Source of the DNA: Candidatus Omnitrophota bacterium
GTDB taxonomy: Bacteria; Omnitrophota; Gorgyraeia; 2-01-FULL-45-10
DNA: 64,000 bases
Assembly (NCBI GenBank): GCA_041650935.1
Contig: JBAZKH010000002.1
Span: forward strand, 64,372 to 128,371
Direction of reading: 5' to 3'
Part shown: in pieces, positions 2,576 to 6,144 of the stretch
Layout: each line of letters starts with the position of its first letter
Numbering within the stretch: position 1 is the stretch's first letter
Translations under genes and position numbers: made by a program
Notes under the pieces: generated by a model
The model's input: only the letters and a program-made list of their open reading frames with translations
Told to the model about the DNA's origin: nothing
Database searches by the model: none

Positions 2576-2649
2576 TGCCCGGTGGTGTAATGGTAGCACG
2601 GCAGCCTCTGGAGCTGCTTGTCTAGGTTCGAATCCTAGCTGGGCAACCA
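2576..2649 (+). tRNA. tRNA-Gln (anticodon CUG)
   Basis: Manual cloverleaf. Acceptor stem TGCCCGG/CTGGGCA with one G-U pair. Anticodon stem GCAGC/GCTGC, loop CTCTGGA (U33, anticodon CTG, purine 37). T-arm CTAGGTTCGAATCCTAG. Discriminator A plus an encoded CCA. Confidence 0.85.
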
Positions 2650-2745
2650 TCCTACTTCGCTCTTAAGGCAGTCAAATAGAGTAGAGCTTCGTAGGATACC
2701 CTACGAAGCACCAGGTTATTTAAGTATTGGAGTGCGAAGTAGGGC
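2650..2745. repeat. Repeat R, copy A. About 95 bp, with terminal inverted repeats CTACTTCGC...GCGAAGTAG and an internal perfect 10-bp hairpin (GCTTCGTAGG-ATAC-CCTACGAAGC). Starts 3 nt after the tRNA-Gln CCA.
   Basis: A 38-nt core TACTTCGCTC(T/C)TAAGGCAGTCAAATAGAGTAGAGCTT is shared with 3726-3763. Both copies are bounded by the same inverted termini. Confidence 0.5.
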
Positions 2746-2848
2746 AACTATCAGTATTCGCTGACACTAGGATTTGAAAAGAGCGAGCACTGAGCGAAGC
2801 GACGACGCCCTTGCTTTTATTATATTTTTGGATATAATATAAGACCCC

Positions 2849-3262
2849 ATGATAATTTACGAAGAAATATTGCGCGAGTTCCAGAAGCAGAAGGTTAAGT
2901 ATATCCTGGTGGGCGGGATTGCGTTCAATCTATTAGGAGGAGAGCGGGCTACTCACGATATGGACGTGATTGTTGAAATGAGCGACGATAACCTGGCGAA
3001 AGCGGTCTCCATACTTAAGCGCGAAGGCTATAAAATAAAGCAACCGGTAGACCCTATGGAAATAGCGAACATAAAAACCCGTAATGATTGGATATACAAT
3101 AAGAATATGAAGGCGTTCAACTTCTACAAAAAAGATGAAATGAAGAAAGTGGATATTATTATAGATTCTCCGGTGCAGTATCAAAAAGCCGAAAAAGACA
3201 AGGTTAAGATTAAGAGCGGCATATTGAATATACCGGCAGGCCCATGGACCAGTTTGATGTAA
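2849..3262 (+). CDS. Hypothetical nucleotidyltransferase-fold protein (MNT/AbiEii-like motif)
   Basis: 137 aa. The motif LVGGIAFNLLGGERATHDMDVIV resembles the Pol-beta nucleotidyltransferase G-G/S...D-x-D signature. A possible 53-aa ORF follows on + at 3303-3464. Confidence 0.35.
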   Translation: MIIYEEILREFQKQKVKYILVGGIAFNLLGGERATHDMDVIVEMSDDNLAKAVSILKREGYKIKQPVDPMEIANIKTRNDWIYNKNMKAFNFYKKDEMKKVDIIIDSPVQYQKAEKDKVKIKSGILNIPAGPWTSLM

Positions 3263-3501
3263 AAACCCTTAAAAATATAGAAAAAATTAGCAAAGAAATA
3301 AGATGAATTTTAGATGGGAGACGGAAAAAGAAAAGTTGTTGCGTTCGATGAAGGTCTCTCCGCAGAAGAAGATGGAGTGGCTTAATGAGATGCACGATTT
3401 TTTGCTTTCTACGGCCACACCTAAAAGGAAAAAGATTTTTTGGAAATTGAGAGGAATTAAGTAAAAACTTCGCACATAACAATTTGGAATATACAGATTT
3501 T

Positions 3502-3586
3502 GCGCGGGTGGTGGAACTGGCAGACACGACAGTTTGAGGGGCTGTTGGGGCAACCCTTGCAGGTTCAAGTCCTGTCCCGCGCACCA
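3502..3586 (+). tRNA. tRNA-Leu (anticodon GAG), type II with long variable arm
   Basis: Acceptor stem GCGCGGG/CCCGCGC. Anticodon stem ACAGT/GCTGT, loop TTGAGGG (anticodon GAG). Long variable arm, T-loop TTCAAGT, discriminator A plus CCA. Confidence 0.85.
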
Positions 3587-3704
3587 TTTTAGTCAGTACG
3601 AGTATGGACTTGAAGCGAGCGAGCGCCGAGCAAAGCGAGGAAAAGCGCTATGCGCGACAGCGAGCGAGGTGAGGTTACGCAGCCGCCTATGGCGGCGTAG
3701 TAAC

Positions 3705-3725
3705 CAAGTCCTGTCCCGCGCACCA
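3705..3725 (+). repeat. Exact 21-bp direct duplicate of the tRNA-Leu 3' end (CAAGTCCTGTCCCGCGCACCA, identical to 3566-3586)
   Basis: Read directly from the sequence. The two copies bracket a 118-bp GC-rich segment (3587-3704). Confidence 0.8.
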
Positions 3726-3811
3726 TACTTCGCTCCTAAGGCAGTCAAATAGAGTAGAGCTTTGCCCTACGAAGCTCTACCCTTATCTAAGCGTCTTAAG
3801 AGCGAAGTAGG
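3726..3811. repeat. Repeat R, copy B. Starts immediately after the duplicated tRNA-Leu 3' fragment and ends 1 nt before tRNA-Glu.
   Basis: Same termini (TACTTCGCTCC...GAGCGAAGTAG) and core as 2650-2745. Internal hairpin GTAGAGCTTTGCCCTACGAAGCTCTAC. Confidence 0.5.
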
Positions 3812-3889
3812 GGCCTCATCGTCTAGCCTGGCCTAGGACATTAGGTTCTCAGCCTAAAGACTGGGGTTCAAATCCCCATGGGGCTACCA
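3812..3889 (+). tRNA. tRNA-Glu (anticodon CUC)
   Basis: Acceptor stem GGCCTCA/TGGGGCT with two G-U pairs. Anticodon stem TTAGG/CCTAA, loop TTCTCAG (anticodon CTC). T-arm TGGGGTTCAAATCCCCA. Discriminator A plus CCA. Confidence 0.75.
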
Positions 3890-3929
3890 TATATTCTGCC
3901 TCGAACCAGAGAGGCAGAGAAAATCAGCT

Positions 3930-3963
3930 GTAGGGCACCTTTAAAGGTGCCCTACGTATTTTT
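3930..3963 (+). terminator. Rho-independent terminator after the tRNA cluster: perfect palindrome GTAGGGCACCTTTAAAGGTGCCCTAC followed by GTATTTTT
   Basis: 11-bp perfect stem plus a T-run. A second hairpin, TCTGCCTC...GAGGCAGA, lies at 3895-3918. Confidence 0.6.
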
Positions 3964-4569: not shown

Positions 4570-6144
4570 TTATTTTAAGTCCTTTTGCAGTTCTGGATGC
4601 AATAGCAGGTATAGGAATTTAAGTCCGTTGTGGTTTAACGTGAGCGCGATTTTGCCGTCCATAGCGCTATAATCGATCCGTTTAACCATGAGTTTTAATG
4701 CTTTGTATTTTTCCTGAGGGAAAAGTGTCTCCCAGATAGGGGAGTTCATTATAAGCGCCTGCGAAAGTTCGTGATCCGTGATGAGTTTTTGTCCAAGCGT
4801 CATCTCTTTTACACGAGCTTCGGTTAATAAGCGGTCAAAGTCGCCATGTTTAGCAGTTAAATTTTTCAATTGGAGTTCCAGCTCTCTCTTATTACAATCC
4901 GGGTTCTTTAACGATTCTTTTACAGTCTCGATTTTTTCATTTAAGGTACGGGCATCTTTAATAAGAGTTTTCATCTCCTTATTATGAGTTTCAATCTCCT
5001 TTTGGATCTGCTCGTTTACATCGCGCAGCGCTTCTTTGCGCAGTTCCGACTCATTGGCTATTTTTATTAATGAGACCACTACTGCGTTTTCAATATCCTG
5101 CGCATTAACAGATCTTGTAGGGCATCCAGAATAACCGCGCTTATGAGCGTTTAAGCAGACATAGTAGCGGTATTTTCGGCCGTCTTTCTTACTGCTGTAA
5201 GTATGAAACATAAGGCTGTTACAGGCCTTGCAGTGCAGGGCGCTGCCAAGGAGGCCTGTATTAGGCGTATTCTTGGAATAGTCGCGCCTTACGCGGTTAC
5301 CCGCGATAATTTCCTGCGCTTTATTGAATGTTTCATCCGAGACTATGGCATCATGCGAGCCTTTGTAGAGTTCGCCGTTATATTTGACCTTGCCGATATA
5401 GAGCACATTATTTAATATGTGACTGATATTCGATGCCTTGAACCTTATGCCTCCGTGATCGCCTGATTTGGTCGGATGGCGTTTGGTAAGATAGCCTTTT
5501 TCATTCAGTATCTTCGCTACTGATAGCAGGGTTCTCTTTTTCAAGTATAGGTCGAATATCTCGCGTACCAGTTGTGCGTCTTTTTCGTTCACTACAATCC
5601 TATGATTTGCTTTATCGAGATCATAGCCTAATATCGGACGGCCTCCGAGCCATTTGCCTTTCTTACGAGCAGCTCCCATCTTGTCTTTAACACGCTCGCT
5701 GATAATCTCGCGTTCGAATTGGGCGAAGGAAAGAAGGATGTTGAGCGTAAGGCGCCCCATAGAATTATTGGTGTTAAAGGCTTGAGTTACGGATACGAAG
5801 ACGACGTTATTTTTCTCGAAGAGTTCGAGCAGTTGAACGAAATCGAGCAAGGATCGCGATAGCCTATCGACTTTATAGACCACAACGCAGTTAATCTTGC
5901 CTTCTTTAATATCGGCGATTAGCTTTCGCAAGGCAGGCCTTTCGGTATTAGCGCCCGTATAGCCTCCATCATCGTATCGATCCGGTAATAATATCCATCC
6001 TTCGCTCTTTTGGCTATTAATATAACTCTCAGAGGATTCGCGCTGGTTATCCAAAGACGTGAAGTCCCGGTCTAAGCCCTCGCTTGTGGACTTACGCGTA
6101 TAGATCGCGCAGTATAATCGTTTTGTGACAGTCTTTTCAGCCAT
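4570..6144 (-). CDS. Large serine recombinase: resolvase/invertase catalytic domain, recombinase domain and zinc-ribbon region. Truncated relative to its paralogue.
   Basis: N-terminus YCAIYTRKSTSEGLDRDFTSLDNQRE carries the catalytic Ser context. Also VVYKVDRLSRS. Cys-rich segment HCKACNSL...YYVC. 524 aa against 531 aa for the paralogue. Confidence 0.8.
   Translation of the reverse strand: MAEKTVTKRLYCAIYTRKSTSEGLDRDFTSLDNQRESSESYINSQKSEGWILLPDRYDDGGYTGANTERPALRKLIADIKEGKINCVVVYKVDRLSRSLLDFVQLLELFEKNNVVFVSVTQAFNTNNSMGRLTLNILLSFAQFEREIISERVKDKMGAARKKGKWLGGRPILGYDLDKANHRIVVNEKDAQLVREIFDLYLKKRTLLSVAKILNEKGYLTKRHPTKSGDHGGIRFKASNISHILNNVLYIGKVKYNGELYKGSHDAIVSDETFNKAQEIIAGNRVRRDYSKNTPNTGLLGSALHCKACNSLMFHTYSSKKDGRKYRYYVCLNAHKRGYSGCPTRSVNAQDIENAVVVSLIKIANESELRKEALRDVNEQIQKEIETHNKEMKTLIKDARTLNEKIETVKESLKNPDCNKRELELQLKNLTAKHGDFDRLLTEARVKEMTLGQKLITDHELSQALIMNSPIWETLFPQEKYKALKLMVKRIDYSAMDGKIALTLNHNGLKFLYLLLHPELQKDLK

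Follow-up and report, generated by a model that had tools for sequence, protein, structure and literature searches.

The stretch of Omnitrophota DNA analysed here, 64 kb long and referred to below as the window, carries a tRNA cluster (Gln, Leu and Glu, Table 1) in which the tRNA-Leu gene has its 3' end present twice. The 21-mer CAAGTCCTGTCCCGCGCACCA occurs at exactly two sites, both on the + strand (3566-3586 and 3705-3725), with no third copy in the 64-kb window when up to 3 mismatches are allowed and no chance match in 100 dinucleotide shuffles, which bears out the exact 21-bp duplication described in the initial annotation. Identity extends one base further, to 22 nt (3566-3587 and 3705-3726), and the upstream copy corresponds to C56-A76 of an intact tRNA-Leu(GAG). 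Local BLAST of the window gave local repeats only, with no larger bracketed element. An assembly artefact is excluded because the arrangement of repeat and interval recurs in independent JGI, ENA and NCBI assemblies. A promoter-like site lies upstream of tRNA-Gln and a strong terminator past tRNA-Glu, with none on the + strand between tRNA-Leu and tRNA-Glu. The cluster also holds a second, shorter tRNA-end duplication, of 9 nt, at tRNA-Gln.

Table 1. Features of the Gln-Leu-Glu tRNA cluster (positions in the window)
Feature	Position	Strand	Remarks
tRNA-Gln(CTG)	2576-2649	+	
X hairpin copy after tRNA-Gln	2653-2741	+	
9-nt copy of the tRNA-Gln end, GGGCAACTA	2742-2750	+	source end GGGCAACCA, 2641-2649
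Truncated second module, tRNA-Gln type	2751-2805	+	
tRNA-Leu(GAG), intact	3502-3586	+	ARAGORN; Rfam tRNA model, 46 bits
19-nt linker TTTTAGTCAGTACGAGTAT	3587-3605	+	resembles the native tRNA-Leu 3' flank of relatives
P1 5' strand, GGACTTG	3606-3612	+	antisense to tRNA positions 56-62 (T-loop/T-stem); pairs with 3705-3711
P2 domain	3615-3669	+	compensatory changes
P2 outer stem	3615-3624 with 3660-3669	+	two tandem G·A pairs in the window copy
P2a hairpin	3626-3631/3635-3640	+	
P2b hairpin	3645-3648/3652-3655	+	
P3 hairpin	3674-3704	+	stacks directly on P1; covariation
P3 outer stem, 3x3 internal loop, inner stem	3674-3678/3700-3704 (outer); 3682-3687/3691-3696 (inner)	+	
Downstream exact copy of tRNA-Leu C56-A76	3705-3725	+	
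P1 3' strand	3705-3711	+	
Unpaired 14-nt 3' tail	3712-3725	+	ends in ACCA
X hairpin spacer	3726-3811	+	long hairpin in MFE fold, z = -5
tRNA-Glu(CTC)	3812-3889	+	last gene of the Gln-Leu-Glu cluster
Terminator-like hairpin after tRNA-Glu	3929-3956		

The space between the repeats holds no integrase, nor any ORF that a family match supports, and neither ARAGORN nor the Rfam tRNA model, even at E up to 10, finds a tRNA or tRNA pseudogene in 3587-3725. A coding reading of the interval was set aside since the ORFs (3534-3752 on the + strand, 3589-3726 and 3593-3748 on the - strand) overlap tRNA sequence and the substitutions keep base pairs. On the tRNA-sense strand the core forms a three-way junction of P1, P2 with two small hairpins, and P3. 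The closing helix P1 joins a segment antisense to the T loop with at least the first seven bases of the tRNA-end copy, leaving a free 3' tail of at most 14 nt, or 8 nt where P1 is longest, that ends in NCCA. This helix is 100% paired in 11/11 copies, C-G being replaced by U-A in step with the tRNA, and it is extended to 8-12 perfect bp at four related loci (L207, L143, the tRNA-Glu copy of L205, and L197) and, from reading the sequence, to 11 bp in L181. The hairpin GCCGCC TAT GGCGGC (3682-3696) noted at the outset is real, as is the CGAG-rich stretch.

In a test on seven sequences 83.8% of the cells in paired columns are paired and 16/38 pairs are changed on both sides, values that 0/500 shuffles reach, and slid controls are 22-40% paired. 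The model alignment of 12 sequences, which is fitted to the model structure and so favours it, gives 83.2% paired and double changes at 18/38 pairs. Compensatory changes in P2 include GCCAATTTGC/GCAAATTGGC in L203 and GCCAAATTGC/GCAATTTGGC in L207, the junctions of this domain keeping conserved purines (GAGGAAAAG, CGACAG), and the P3 stem covaries as GGTTAC/GTAACC, GGTCC/GGACC, GGTCA/TGACC, GGCTAC/GTAGCC and GGCGAC/GTCGCC. Non-Watson-Crick cells in the paired columns are confined to G·U and G·A, an asymmetry between strands (G·U 6 vs A·C 0; G·A/A·G 63 vs C·T 0). The general marks of a structured non-coding RNA are thus all present, namely compensatory substitutions, a strand-specific wobble pattern and co-orientation with the transcription unit, and it is from the strand asymmetry and the co-orientation with the tRNAs that we infer an RNA rather than a single-stranded DNA. 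In the minimum free energy structure of the tRNA together with the module, it is the proximal T loop that takes up the antisense segment, while the distal copy pairs with the acceptor 5' strand, which puts the two pairings at comparable energies. The duplicated tRNA-Leu end is the closing part of a small folded non-coding module, previously undescribed (no earlier description was found in the literature searched), and not the scar of a prophage or island.

A covariance model matches at least 12 copies, to which two or three truncated remnants can be added (window 2751-2805 and L209 among them), all on related Omnitrophota contigs, within one phylum, from metagenome assemblies of groundwater and sediment samples. 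L001, the nearest relative in the genome collection, and the Logan contig L081 both break off within tRNA-Gln and are uninformative here. The tRNA comes first, then 15-39 nt of linker, about 100 nt of core (99 nt in the window) and an exact copy of C56-A76 of that same tRNA, the whole unit measuring 118-139 bp. Copies stand behind tRNA-Leu in the window, L203, L204, L205, L132 and L197, behind a different sequence variant of tRNA-Leu in L207, behind tRNA-Gln in L143, L173 and twice in L181 (L181a and L181b), and behind tRNA-Glu in L205, so that homologous cores have three tRNA isoacceptors as hosts, Leu in two sequence variants, Gln and Glu. At all eight loci (8/8) that have both on the contig the downstream copy is identical to C56-A76 of the resident tRNA over 21/21 positions, a ninth matching at 19/21; the eight span four different tRNA 3' ends, and cores are only 51-86% identical between loci. 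Behind the tRNA-Leu variant of the window the 14-nt tail is invariant in 5/6 copies, L132 differing at the last two bases, even though the cores diverge by as much as about 45% and the linkers are variable. Cores resemble one another across tRNA types, the window (Leu) and L181 (Gln) being 83-84% identical and the Glu copy of L205 and L143 (Gln) 86%, beside 83% between L203 and the L207 Leu variant; L181a and L181b, on one contig, have cores that are 99% identical. Because the core subfamilies do not track tRNA type, the module moves or duplicates. We consider it probable that 3587-3725 is one copy of a family of non-coding, highly structured modules of about 120 nt, which follow tRNA genes immediately in the Omnitrophota cluster of Gln, Leu and Glu tRNAs linked to glnS, as selfish or regulatory passengers.

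The boundaries of the copies bear on how they arose. C56 is fixed and the left boundary is variable, the duplicated length ranging over 21-42 nt; the longest repeat, in L205, is C56-A76 plus 21 nt of flank (41/42 identical). The linkers of L203, L204 and L205 have the same length and nearly the same sequence as TTTTAGTCAGTACGAGTAT, which is itself similar to the start of the Leu-Glu spacer in the module-less L206, and in L205 the linker recurs after the downstream tRNA-end copy. L151 has the X spacer directly after tRNA-Leu, and its stretch 382-440 matches window 3705-3762 at 93% identity without interruption at the tRNA end; by this comparison, the downstream copy together with X looks like the original 3' neighbourhood of tRNA-Leu. 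The common 19-nt linker of the four tRNA-Leu copies nearest the window may reflect a single ancestral insertion, in which case the perfect downstream copy would reflect selection and not recent copy-in. The remnant behind tRNA-Gln in the window consists of the linker motif TCAGTA, then CTAGGATTTG, whose sequence is antisense to the T arm of tRNA-Gln, and lastly the first third of a core; its positions 2770-2805 are 81% identical to 3606-3641, and it is 75% identical to L181 15-58, with a weak nhmmer match.

The initial annotation took the two tRNA ends for attL and attR of an integrase-borne element since almost wholly deleted. In its classical form, a tyrosine-integrase island or prophage in the T-loop sublocation of tRNA-Leu would have shrunk to 118 bp. 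A repeat running from T loop to CCA is the typical identity block of tDNA-integrating islands: the Islander account describes these as a regenerated target plus a displaced fragment, with a T-loop sublocation and a tyrosine integrase (PMC4383910), and tRNA fragments from integrated elements have been described as well (PMC9897764). At our locus the repeat is indeed a tRNA 3' segment at both ends, exact over 21-22 nt. Empty sites exist too, as the initial annotation had anticipated, an unduplicated tRNA-Leu lying 16-28 nt from tRNA-Glu in L206 (GlnS 84% identical to that of the window), L208, L135 (whose tRNA-Leu is 100% identical to the window's) and L143. That the duplication marks an insertion behind or into a tRNA 3' end therefore stands; the integrase-borne, deleted element does not. 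Pfam scans of 56 window ORFs contain no Phage_integrase (tyrosine integrase) domain, the exact 21-mer is absent from 2.9 million viral contigs, the core motif and a gapped whole-module pattern have no match in viral contigs (as a control the pattern recovers 8 known copies), and blastn of the interval against phage records gives no match. The inter-repeat fold is kept with compensatory changes in at least 12 copies, which random deletion remnants would not show, and L203, L204, L205, L207 and the more distant L132 and L197 share the arrangement with a structure-conserved inter-repeat sequence, a pattern that the initial annotation itself regarded as pointing to a structural RNA. Homologous cores also follow tRNA-Gln and tRNA-Glu, each ending in its own tRNA's last 21 nt, contrary to what a site-specific integrase with a fixed attP predicts. 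We therefore regard the classical reading as very improbable; the other option initially put forward, a tiny element hitchhiking on a tRNA, is close to what the data show.

The two large serine recombinases downstream of tRNA-Glu were rejected as the cause: both sit outside the repeats, the closer one 845 bp past the downstream copy, and enzymes of this kind cross over at a 2-bp core. Searches for a known RNA class were negative: the module has no match at gathering thresholds in Rfam 15 (including the DUF3800, HEARO, IS605-orfB, ribozyme and riboswitch families) for the window and 8 related loci, and 3560-3830 gives no relevant Rfam match at E up to 10. By eye, hammerhead, twister-sister and similar ribozyme cores do not fit the junctions (AA / 0-3 nt / 0 nt). 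Group I introns in tRNA genes have a ribozyme core of more than 200 nt, insert in the anticodon loop and leave no exon duplication; here a 99-nt core lies downstream of an intact tRNA with no Rfam intron match. Nor does a MITE or DDE-element derivative fit, as the only inverted termini are the 7-bp P1 pair (at most 12 bp in any copy) and the duplication is 21-42 nt long, parted from the left end by a non-conserved linker.

A resident, vertically inherited and non-mobile RNA, acting in cis on the tRNA operon in processing, folding control or ligand sensing, would account for much of this. Its 3' part would be kept by selection and the copies at other tRNAs would be old paralogues, in keeping with the strong structure conservation, the conserved junction purines, the + strand asymmetry, the location inside a promoter-to-terminator unit and two alternative pairings that resemble a switch; the tail that stays invariant in 5/6 copies despite diverged cores and variable linkers also speaks for it. 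We nevertheless hold it unlikely. The module is patchy among close relatives, being absent from L206 and present in L203-L205 and L207 (GlnS 81-83% identical), the grouping of cores cuts across tRNA types, a homing-endonuclease cassette on one contig is flanked by duplicates that are 99% identical, and truncated remnants occur (window 2751-2805, L209).

Far less probable still is a functionless by-product, in which repeated break repair at tRNA genes attacked by homing endonucleases would leave partial tRNA duplications and filler, with structure arising by accident in CG-rich low complexity. The window copy is rich in CGAG repeats, and the clusters do hold other partial tRNA duplications of varying length (9 nt of tRNA-Gln in the window and, in L165 and L173, 32-36 nt from the 5' part of tRNA-Glu). 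Against accident, however, other copies exchange the CGAG stems for AT-rich, perfectly complementary ones (CCAATTTGC/GCAAATTGG), 18/38 pairs carry double changes with shuffled and slid controls far below the observed values, and filler DNA is not expected to be homologous across genomes and tRNA types.

The right-end guide RNAs of IS200/IS605 TnpB elements consist of a scaffold followed by a flank-derived 3' stretch. The module has this layout, with about 100 nt of scaffold ahead of 14-21 nt of 3' sequence taken from the flank, and might on that basis serve a protein-driven mobile element as a non-autonomous end or as its guide RNA, having descended, by loss of cargo, from either a homing-endonuclease cassette or an IS200/IS605-like element, with the core as right-end RNA (compare the TnpB omega-RNA scaffold) and the tRNA-derived tail as flank-derived guide or homology arm. 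L181b does have cargo, an HNH homing endonuclease and a DUF3800 gene between two modules, and in relatives the spacers between tRNAs abound in GIY-YIG, LAGLIDADG and HNH genes with partial tRNA copies on either side. Eleven of the 12 copies lack cargo, however, the same HNH-DUF3800 cassette follows tRNA-Gln without a module in L214, and a pur operon that has neither tRNA nor module contains a close HNH homologue; the HNH homing endonuclease is not supported as driver, its closest homologues occurring without module and without tRNAs. No TnpA, TnpB or IscB family appears in Pfam scans of the 56 window ORFs and 10 ORFs from six related loci. The intact tRNA in cis would be a self-target of any guide that equals its own 3' end, and the duplication argues against IS200/IS605 membership, as this family inserts 3' of a fixed motif without duplication. 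Eleven unrelated structured RNA motifs whose role is unknown are associated with DUF3800 genes (PMC5737381), a further point for a protein partner; a DUF3800-associated motif was rejected, the gene being a neighbour of only 1/12 copies (L181b), and the Pfam-scanned window ORFs hold no DUF3800 domain. A protein-driven guide RNA thus seems to us quite improbable.

We return to a duplicative passenger, selfish or regulatory, in place of a decayed island. The module would be transcribed as RNA within the tRNA operon transcript, and new copies would arise by copy-in behind a tRNA, the right-hand join falling at the T-loop-like module end (CCAARTCC against TTCAARTCC) and the position of the left-hand join varying within the tRNA 3' flank. 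Everything from C56 to the left join would then be duplicated (21-42 nt), and the copy would automatically match its new tRNA. Copy-in by template switching does not on its own account for the antisense segment also matching bases specific to the tRNA outside the universal T loop (L181, 11 bp; L197, 12 bp; Glu copy of L205, 9 bp). Because the antisense segment could pair with either the real tRNA or its downstream copy, the copy may serve as a built-in decoy that keeps the tRNA foldable. More tentatively, and at somewhat less than even chances, these modules may form a new class of element, a structured RNA of about 100 nt in tRNA operons that spreads by capturing a tRNA 3' end and, the T loop being universal, could be re-targeted to any tRNA. 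The 3' tail would then mimic the acceptor 3' strand and CCA of the tRNA perfectly, and the RNA could act as a switch or decoy that controls how the adjacent tRNA folds or the chemistry at its 3' end; alternatively, it could itself be the mobile agent.

It is routine to take duplicated tRNA 3' ends as integrase footprints and to delimit genomic islands by them; here such a footprint belongs to a protein-less folded module that incorporates the duplicated end, at several tRNA species. Should the module act as an RNA on tRNA folding, processing or protection, a poorly known phylum would have yielded a tRNA-linked regulator of a new kind; should it be mobile, essential tRNA genes would be colonised without an integrase, with the universal T loop as landing sequence. 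The covariance model is now ready for genome surveys.

Set beside tDNA islands and prophages, the module shares an intact tRNA with a displaced or duplicated 3' part from the T loop, and empty sites in relatives; it differs in having no integrase or cargo, a conserved folded insert of 118-139 bp, three isoacceptors as hosts and a duplication of 21-42 nt. Like MITEs, the IS200/IS605-derived PATEs and TnpB omega RNAs it is small, non-coding, hairpin-rich and multi-copy with inverted termini (GGAYTTG ... CAARTCC), and it resembles omega RNAs further in being a scaffold followed by flank-derived 3' sequence. Unlike all of these, it has no short fixed target-site duplication, no conserved left boundary and no partner transposase or TnpB that we have seen, and unlike an omega RNA its 'guide' corresponds to an intact essential gene in cis. 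CRISPR spacer acquisition and casposon insertion duplicate the repeat or target on insertion; the module too is an insert flanked by a long (>20 bp) target duplication, but with no Cas1 or casposase, a conserved structured insert, and one boundary fixed (C56) and the other variable. The leuZ 3'ETS of E. coli, a tRNA-operon spacer RNA, acts as an sRNA sponge. With it, and with GOLLD and ROOL, orphan structured motifs found near tRNAs (PMC5737381), the module has in common its place in a tRNA operon spacer, co-orientation and conserved structure; those RNAs are not known to carry a copy of the neighbouring tRNA 3' end or an anti-T-loop segment, and the module has no Rfam match. SegB of phage T4 is a free-standing homing endonuclease in a tRNA cluster (PMC2330249), and unlike such nucleases the module encodes no protein and is inconsistently linked to nuclease genes. 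In both cases, however, tRNA clusters are the landing pads of selfish cassettes, with GIY-YIG, LAGLIDADG and HNH genes in the same spacers of relatives, and the Omnitrophota Gln-Leu-Glu cluster is a hotspot at which homing-endonuclease cassettes and non-coding elements alike insert with partial tRNA duplications.

The 21-mer CAAGTCCTGTCCCGCGCACCA is present twice in the window as an exact direct repeat whose identity extends to 22 nt, with no third match in the window when up to 3 mismatches are allowed and 0 occurrences across 100 shuffles. The upstream copy is C56-A76 of an intact tRNA-Leu(GAG), confirming the exact duplication of this tRNA 3' end claimed in the initial annotation. The window GlnS matches a protein of a Candidatus Omnitrophota MAG (NCBI) at 100% identity, and within the genome collection an Omnitrophota MAG, with 83% identity, is the best relative at species level. 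The nucleotidyltransferase-like ORF behind tRNA-Gln, with weak PF14907, PF10706 and DUF6036 matches, is 163 aa long in L167, L203 and L207 (L numbers denote related Omnitrophota loci), so the window version is probably truncated; together with the conserved 53-aa ORF it recurs in several relatives, again in the Gln-Leu spacer.

Features of the tRNA cluster and the adjoining DNA in the window
Feature	Position	Strand	Remarks
gltX end, then glnS			upstream of tRNA cluster
tRNA-Gln(CTG)	2576-2649		
tRNA-Gln last 9 nt, GGGCAACCA	2641-2649		
X hairpin, first copy	2653-2741		
tRNA-Gln end again, GGGCAACTA	2742-2750		directly behind X
Truncated module copy	2751-2805		
Small nucleotidyltransferase-like ORF	2849-3262		137 aa; between tRNA-Gln and tRNA-Leu
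53-aa ORF	3303-3464		between tRNA-Gln and tRNA-Leu; stop 38 nt upstream of tRNA-Leu
tRNA-Leu(GAG)	3502-3586		
21-mer, upstream copy	3566-3586		
118-bp interval			between the 21-mer copies
21-mer, downstream copy	3705-3725		
X hairpin, second copy	3726-3811		86 nt; between second 21-mer copy and tRNA-Glu
tRNA-Glu(CTC)	3812-3889		
Strong terminator	3929-3956		behind tRNA-Glu
Low-GC stretch	4000-56000		
Large serine recombinase/DUF2924 pair	4570-6144/6152-6661	minus	
Large serine recombinase/DUF2924 pair	32347-33942/33951-34394	minus	

A metagenome scan using the 21-mer yielded at least 120 loci, and the Gln-Leu-Glu tRNA cluster is common to about 20 of the matches listed, with highly variable spacers (Gln-Leu 95-2335 nt, Leu-Glu 16-4383 nt). 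In several relatives tRNA-Leu nearly abuts tRNA-Glu, and compact loci such as L135 (18 nt, identical tRNA-Leu) and L143 (16 nt) establish that the unduplicated tRNA-Leu state anticipated in the initial annotation exists. Homologues of the 118-bp interval, at 74-82% identity, lie in L143, L173 and (two copies) L181, where they terminate not in the tRNA-Leu end but in the tRNA-Gln 3' end CAAATCCTAGCCCGTCAGCCA; in L143 tRNA-Gln is followed by 39 nt, the core and the tRNA-Gln end copy. Further loci were reached via GlnS homologues of 81-84% identity, and L203, L204 and L205 each have tRNA-Leu, then the same 19-nt linker, a homologous core of ~100 nt and an exact 21-nt copy. This unit of linker, core and copy of the resident tRNA's C56-A76 is here called the module. 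An additional one behind tRNA-Glu in L205 ends in CAAATCCCCATGGGGCTACCA, C56-A76 of tRNA-Glu, and in L207, where the T arm and acceptor stem of tRNA-Leu differ (the Leu2 variant), the module closes with that variant's 21 nt, CAAATCCCCCTCTCCGCACCA. With a covariance model built in this analysis two further copies, both diverged, were located behind the tRNA-Leu of L132 and of L197. The sample comprises 12 module copies, all metagenomic; the downstream copy and resident tRNA are 21/21 identical in 8 of 8 loci having both on the contig, and 19/21 in L132. The closest relative, L206 (84%), and L208 have compact clusters without a module. The covariance model gave 0 matches in 1.2 Mb of glnS neighbourhoods of other phyla, viral contigs hold no match to the module pattern and phage records none to the module; neither Rfam nor ARAGORN recognises it, and no description was found in Rfam or in the literature searched.

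The module copies align over one common fold, a three-way junction. In helix P1 the 5' end of the core, GGAYTTG, antisense to the T loop and to the beginning of the 3' strand of the T stem, pairs with CAARTCC, bases 1-7 of the tRNA-end copy. P2 is a 10-bp stem around two small hairpins with purine-rich, conserved joints (GAGGAAAAG, CGACAG), P3, an interrupted hairpin, has a 3' strand that continues directly into that of P1, and the final 14 nt of the tRNA-end copy form an unpaired tail. A MAFFT alignment of 7 sequences has standard pairs in 83.8% of cells and two-sided changes in 16 of 38 pairs; 0 of 500 shuffles match these values and partner sliding gives 22-40% pairing. All 12 copies, aligned to the covariance model and thereby biased toward its structure, are 83.2% paired with double changes in 18 of 38 pairs. 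The P2 stem reads GCCAATTTGC/GCAAATTGGC in L203, GCCAAATTGC/GCAATTTGGC in L207 and GCGAGGCCGC/GCGGCCGAGC in both the tRNA-Glu module of L205 and L143, and in the window the same helix takes a CGAG-rich form with two tandem G·A pairs, which accounts for the AGCGAG-rich low complexity remarked on earlier. In P1, C-G alternates with U-A to suit the tRNA; in L207, L143, L205-Glu and L197 the helix reaches 8-12 perfect bp (and in L181, by reading the sequence, 11 bp) and so matches tRNA-specific bases. The non-Watson-Crick cells of paired columns are 6 G·U, 63 G·A or A·G and 6 G·G, with 0 of the mirror-image A·C and C·T, so the fold is selected on the tRNA-sense strand. Judged from the sequences, this bias would be the pattern expected of an RNA co-transcribed with the tRNAs, and there is no + strand terminator between tRNA-Leu and tRNA-Glu.

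The initial annotation took the interval for the scar of a tRNA-targeted integration, left by an integrase element since almost deleted. Such a deletion scar is not supported, as the DNA between the repeats is non-coding, the window ORFs scanned include no tyrosine integrase, the inter-repeat fold is conserved and the module family is present at three isoacceptors. The other suggestion made there, a tiny tRNA-hitchhiking element, came close to the mark. Several observations favour duplicative or mobile behaviour of the cores, which are patchily present among close relatives. They cluster across tRNA types, window-Leu with L181-Gln (83-84% identity), L205-Glu with L143-Gln (86%) and L203-Leu with L207-Leu2 (83%), whereas window-Leu and L203-Leu share just 64%. 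L181 carries two copies, 99% identical, on one contig, L205 has two modules of different subfamilies, and truncated copies are seen in the window and in L209, which has only a 5' remnant, behind tRNA-Glu. The module is best described as a new tRNA-sense structured element, supported by covariation, that duplicates among Omnitrophota tRNA genes and whose fold includes a copy of the final 21 nt of the host tRNA.

In the window the X hairpin follows the downstream copy, and in L151 it comes directly after tRNA-Leu; an AT-rich hairpin follows the downstream copy in L143, and in L208 lies directly behind tRNA-Gln. The Leu linker is similar to the native Leu-Glu spacer of module-less L206, and in L205 a shared stretch of 21 nt follows both C56-A76 copies, so that the duplication measures 42 nt (41/42 identical). 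From these flank comparisons the right junction is always exactly C56, adjoining the module's own T-loop-like end, and the left junction is variable. The simplest account we infer is that modules are copied in through template switching or microhomology-guided repair, in which synthesis would pass through the tRNA and a short flank, switch into a donor module and return at T-loop homology (CCAARTCC versus TTCAARTCC). The stretch from C56 to the flank would be duplicated, and the copy would fit any new tRNA without a dedicated recombinase. Copy-in leaves the tRNA-specific lengthening of the antisense segment unexplained; this lengthening points either to an inverted-duplication origin or to selection, at a later stage, for a stronger P1.

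The module's function we likewise infer. For the antisense segment, the MFE fold of tRNA plus module allows pairing with either the real T arm or the downstream copy, and because these pairings are interchangeable the copy may, in this predicted fold, act as an internal decoy letting the tRNA fold. The tail is identical in 5 of 6 copies behind this tRNA-Leu variant (L132 deviates at the last two bases), whereas their cores are up to ~45% different, which suggests that the tail is constrained or that these copies arose recently. As judged by eye from the sequences, P3 stacks on P1 to give ~11-12 bp of helix with the 3' tail behind it; this loosely recalls the tRNA acceptor/T-arm stack, and by this analogy tRNA-processing enzymes are candidate partners.

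Other repeats and structures adjoin these tRNA ends. X hairpins, a family of ~86-90 nt, extend from directly behind a tRNA 3' end, or the copy of one, to the following tRNA; over their first 37 nt the two in the window share 97% identity, homologues occur in L151, L089 and L204, and X may be another structured spacer element. The 9-nt tRNA-Gln end duplication is shorter and brackets X, and a similar short pseudo-end closes an HNH-DUF3800 cassette in L214 and L181. In L208 (7797-7910) and L209 (7810-7900) the CCA end of tRNA-Gln lies inside a perfect AT-rich hairpin, GCCAAAATTTTGC ... GCAAAATTTTGGC, with a partial repeat CAGCCAAAATTT ~100 nt beyond, and this is another recurring spacer structure incorporating a tRNA end. 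In L165 (oriented 4684-5457) and L173 (438-1051) a 32-36-nt copy of the tRNA-Glu 5' part sits at the beginning of, or shortly before, a LAGLIDADG-like ORF, without Pfam support, that runs into the intact tRNA-Glu; these copies mirror the 3'-end duplications and suggest cassettes entering tRNA-Glu yet restoring it.

The low-GC stretch (GC 0.35-0.45 versus 0.50-0.54 in the flanks) begins directly after tRNA-Glu and its terminator. Besides the two large serine recombinase/DUF2924 pairs it contains restriction-modification genes of type I and of a type III-like kind, an SMC-like ATPase, SMODS, TIR, NucS-like and terminase-like ORFs, and pst/phoU and two-component genes, and probably represents two tandem islands adjoining the tRNA cluster.

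A link between the module and the HNH-DUF3800 cassette is unconfirmed. The inter-module DNA of L181 encodes the HNH homing endonuclease and DUF3800 protein, but in L214 the same cassette lies behind tRNA-Gln and no module is present, a pur operon lacking both tRNA and module contains a close HNH homologue, and a DUF3800 gene is near just 1 of the 12 modules. Eleven RNA motifs, unrelated to one another and of unknown function, are known to be associated with DUF3800 genes (PMC5737381). Free-standing GIY-YIG, LAGLIDADG and HNH endonuclease genes are found in the Gln-Leu-Glu spacers of L181, L165, L086, L151, L207 and L214. The cluster is a hotspot for selfish cassettes in related Omnitrophota, and the endonuclease genes in its spacers recall segB in the tRNA cluster of phage T4.
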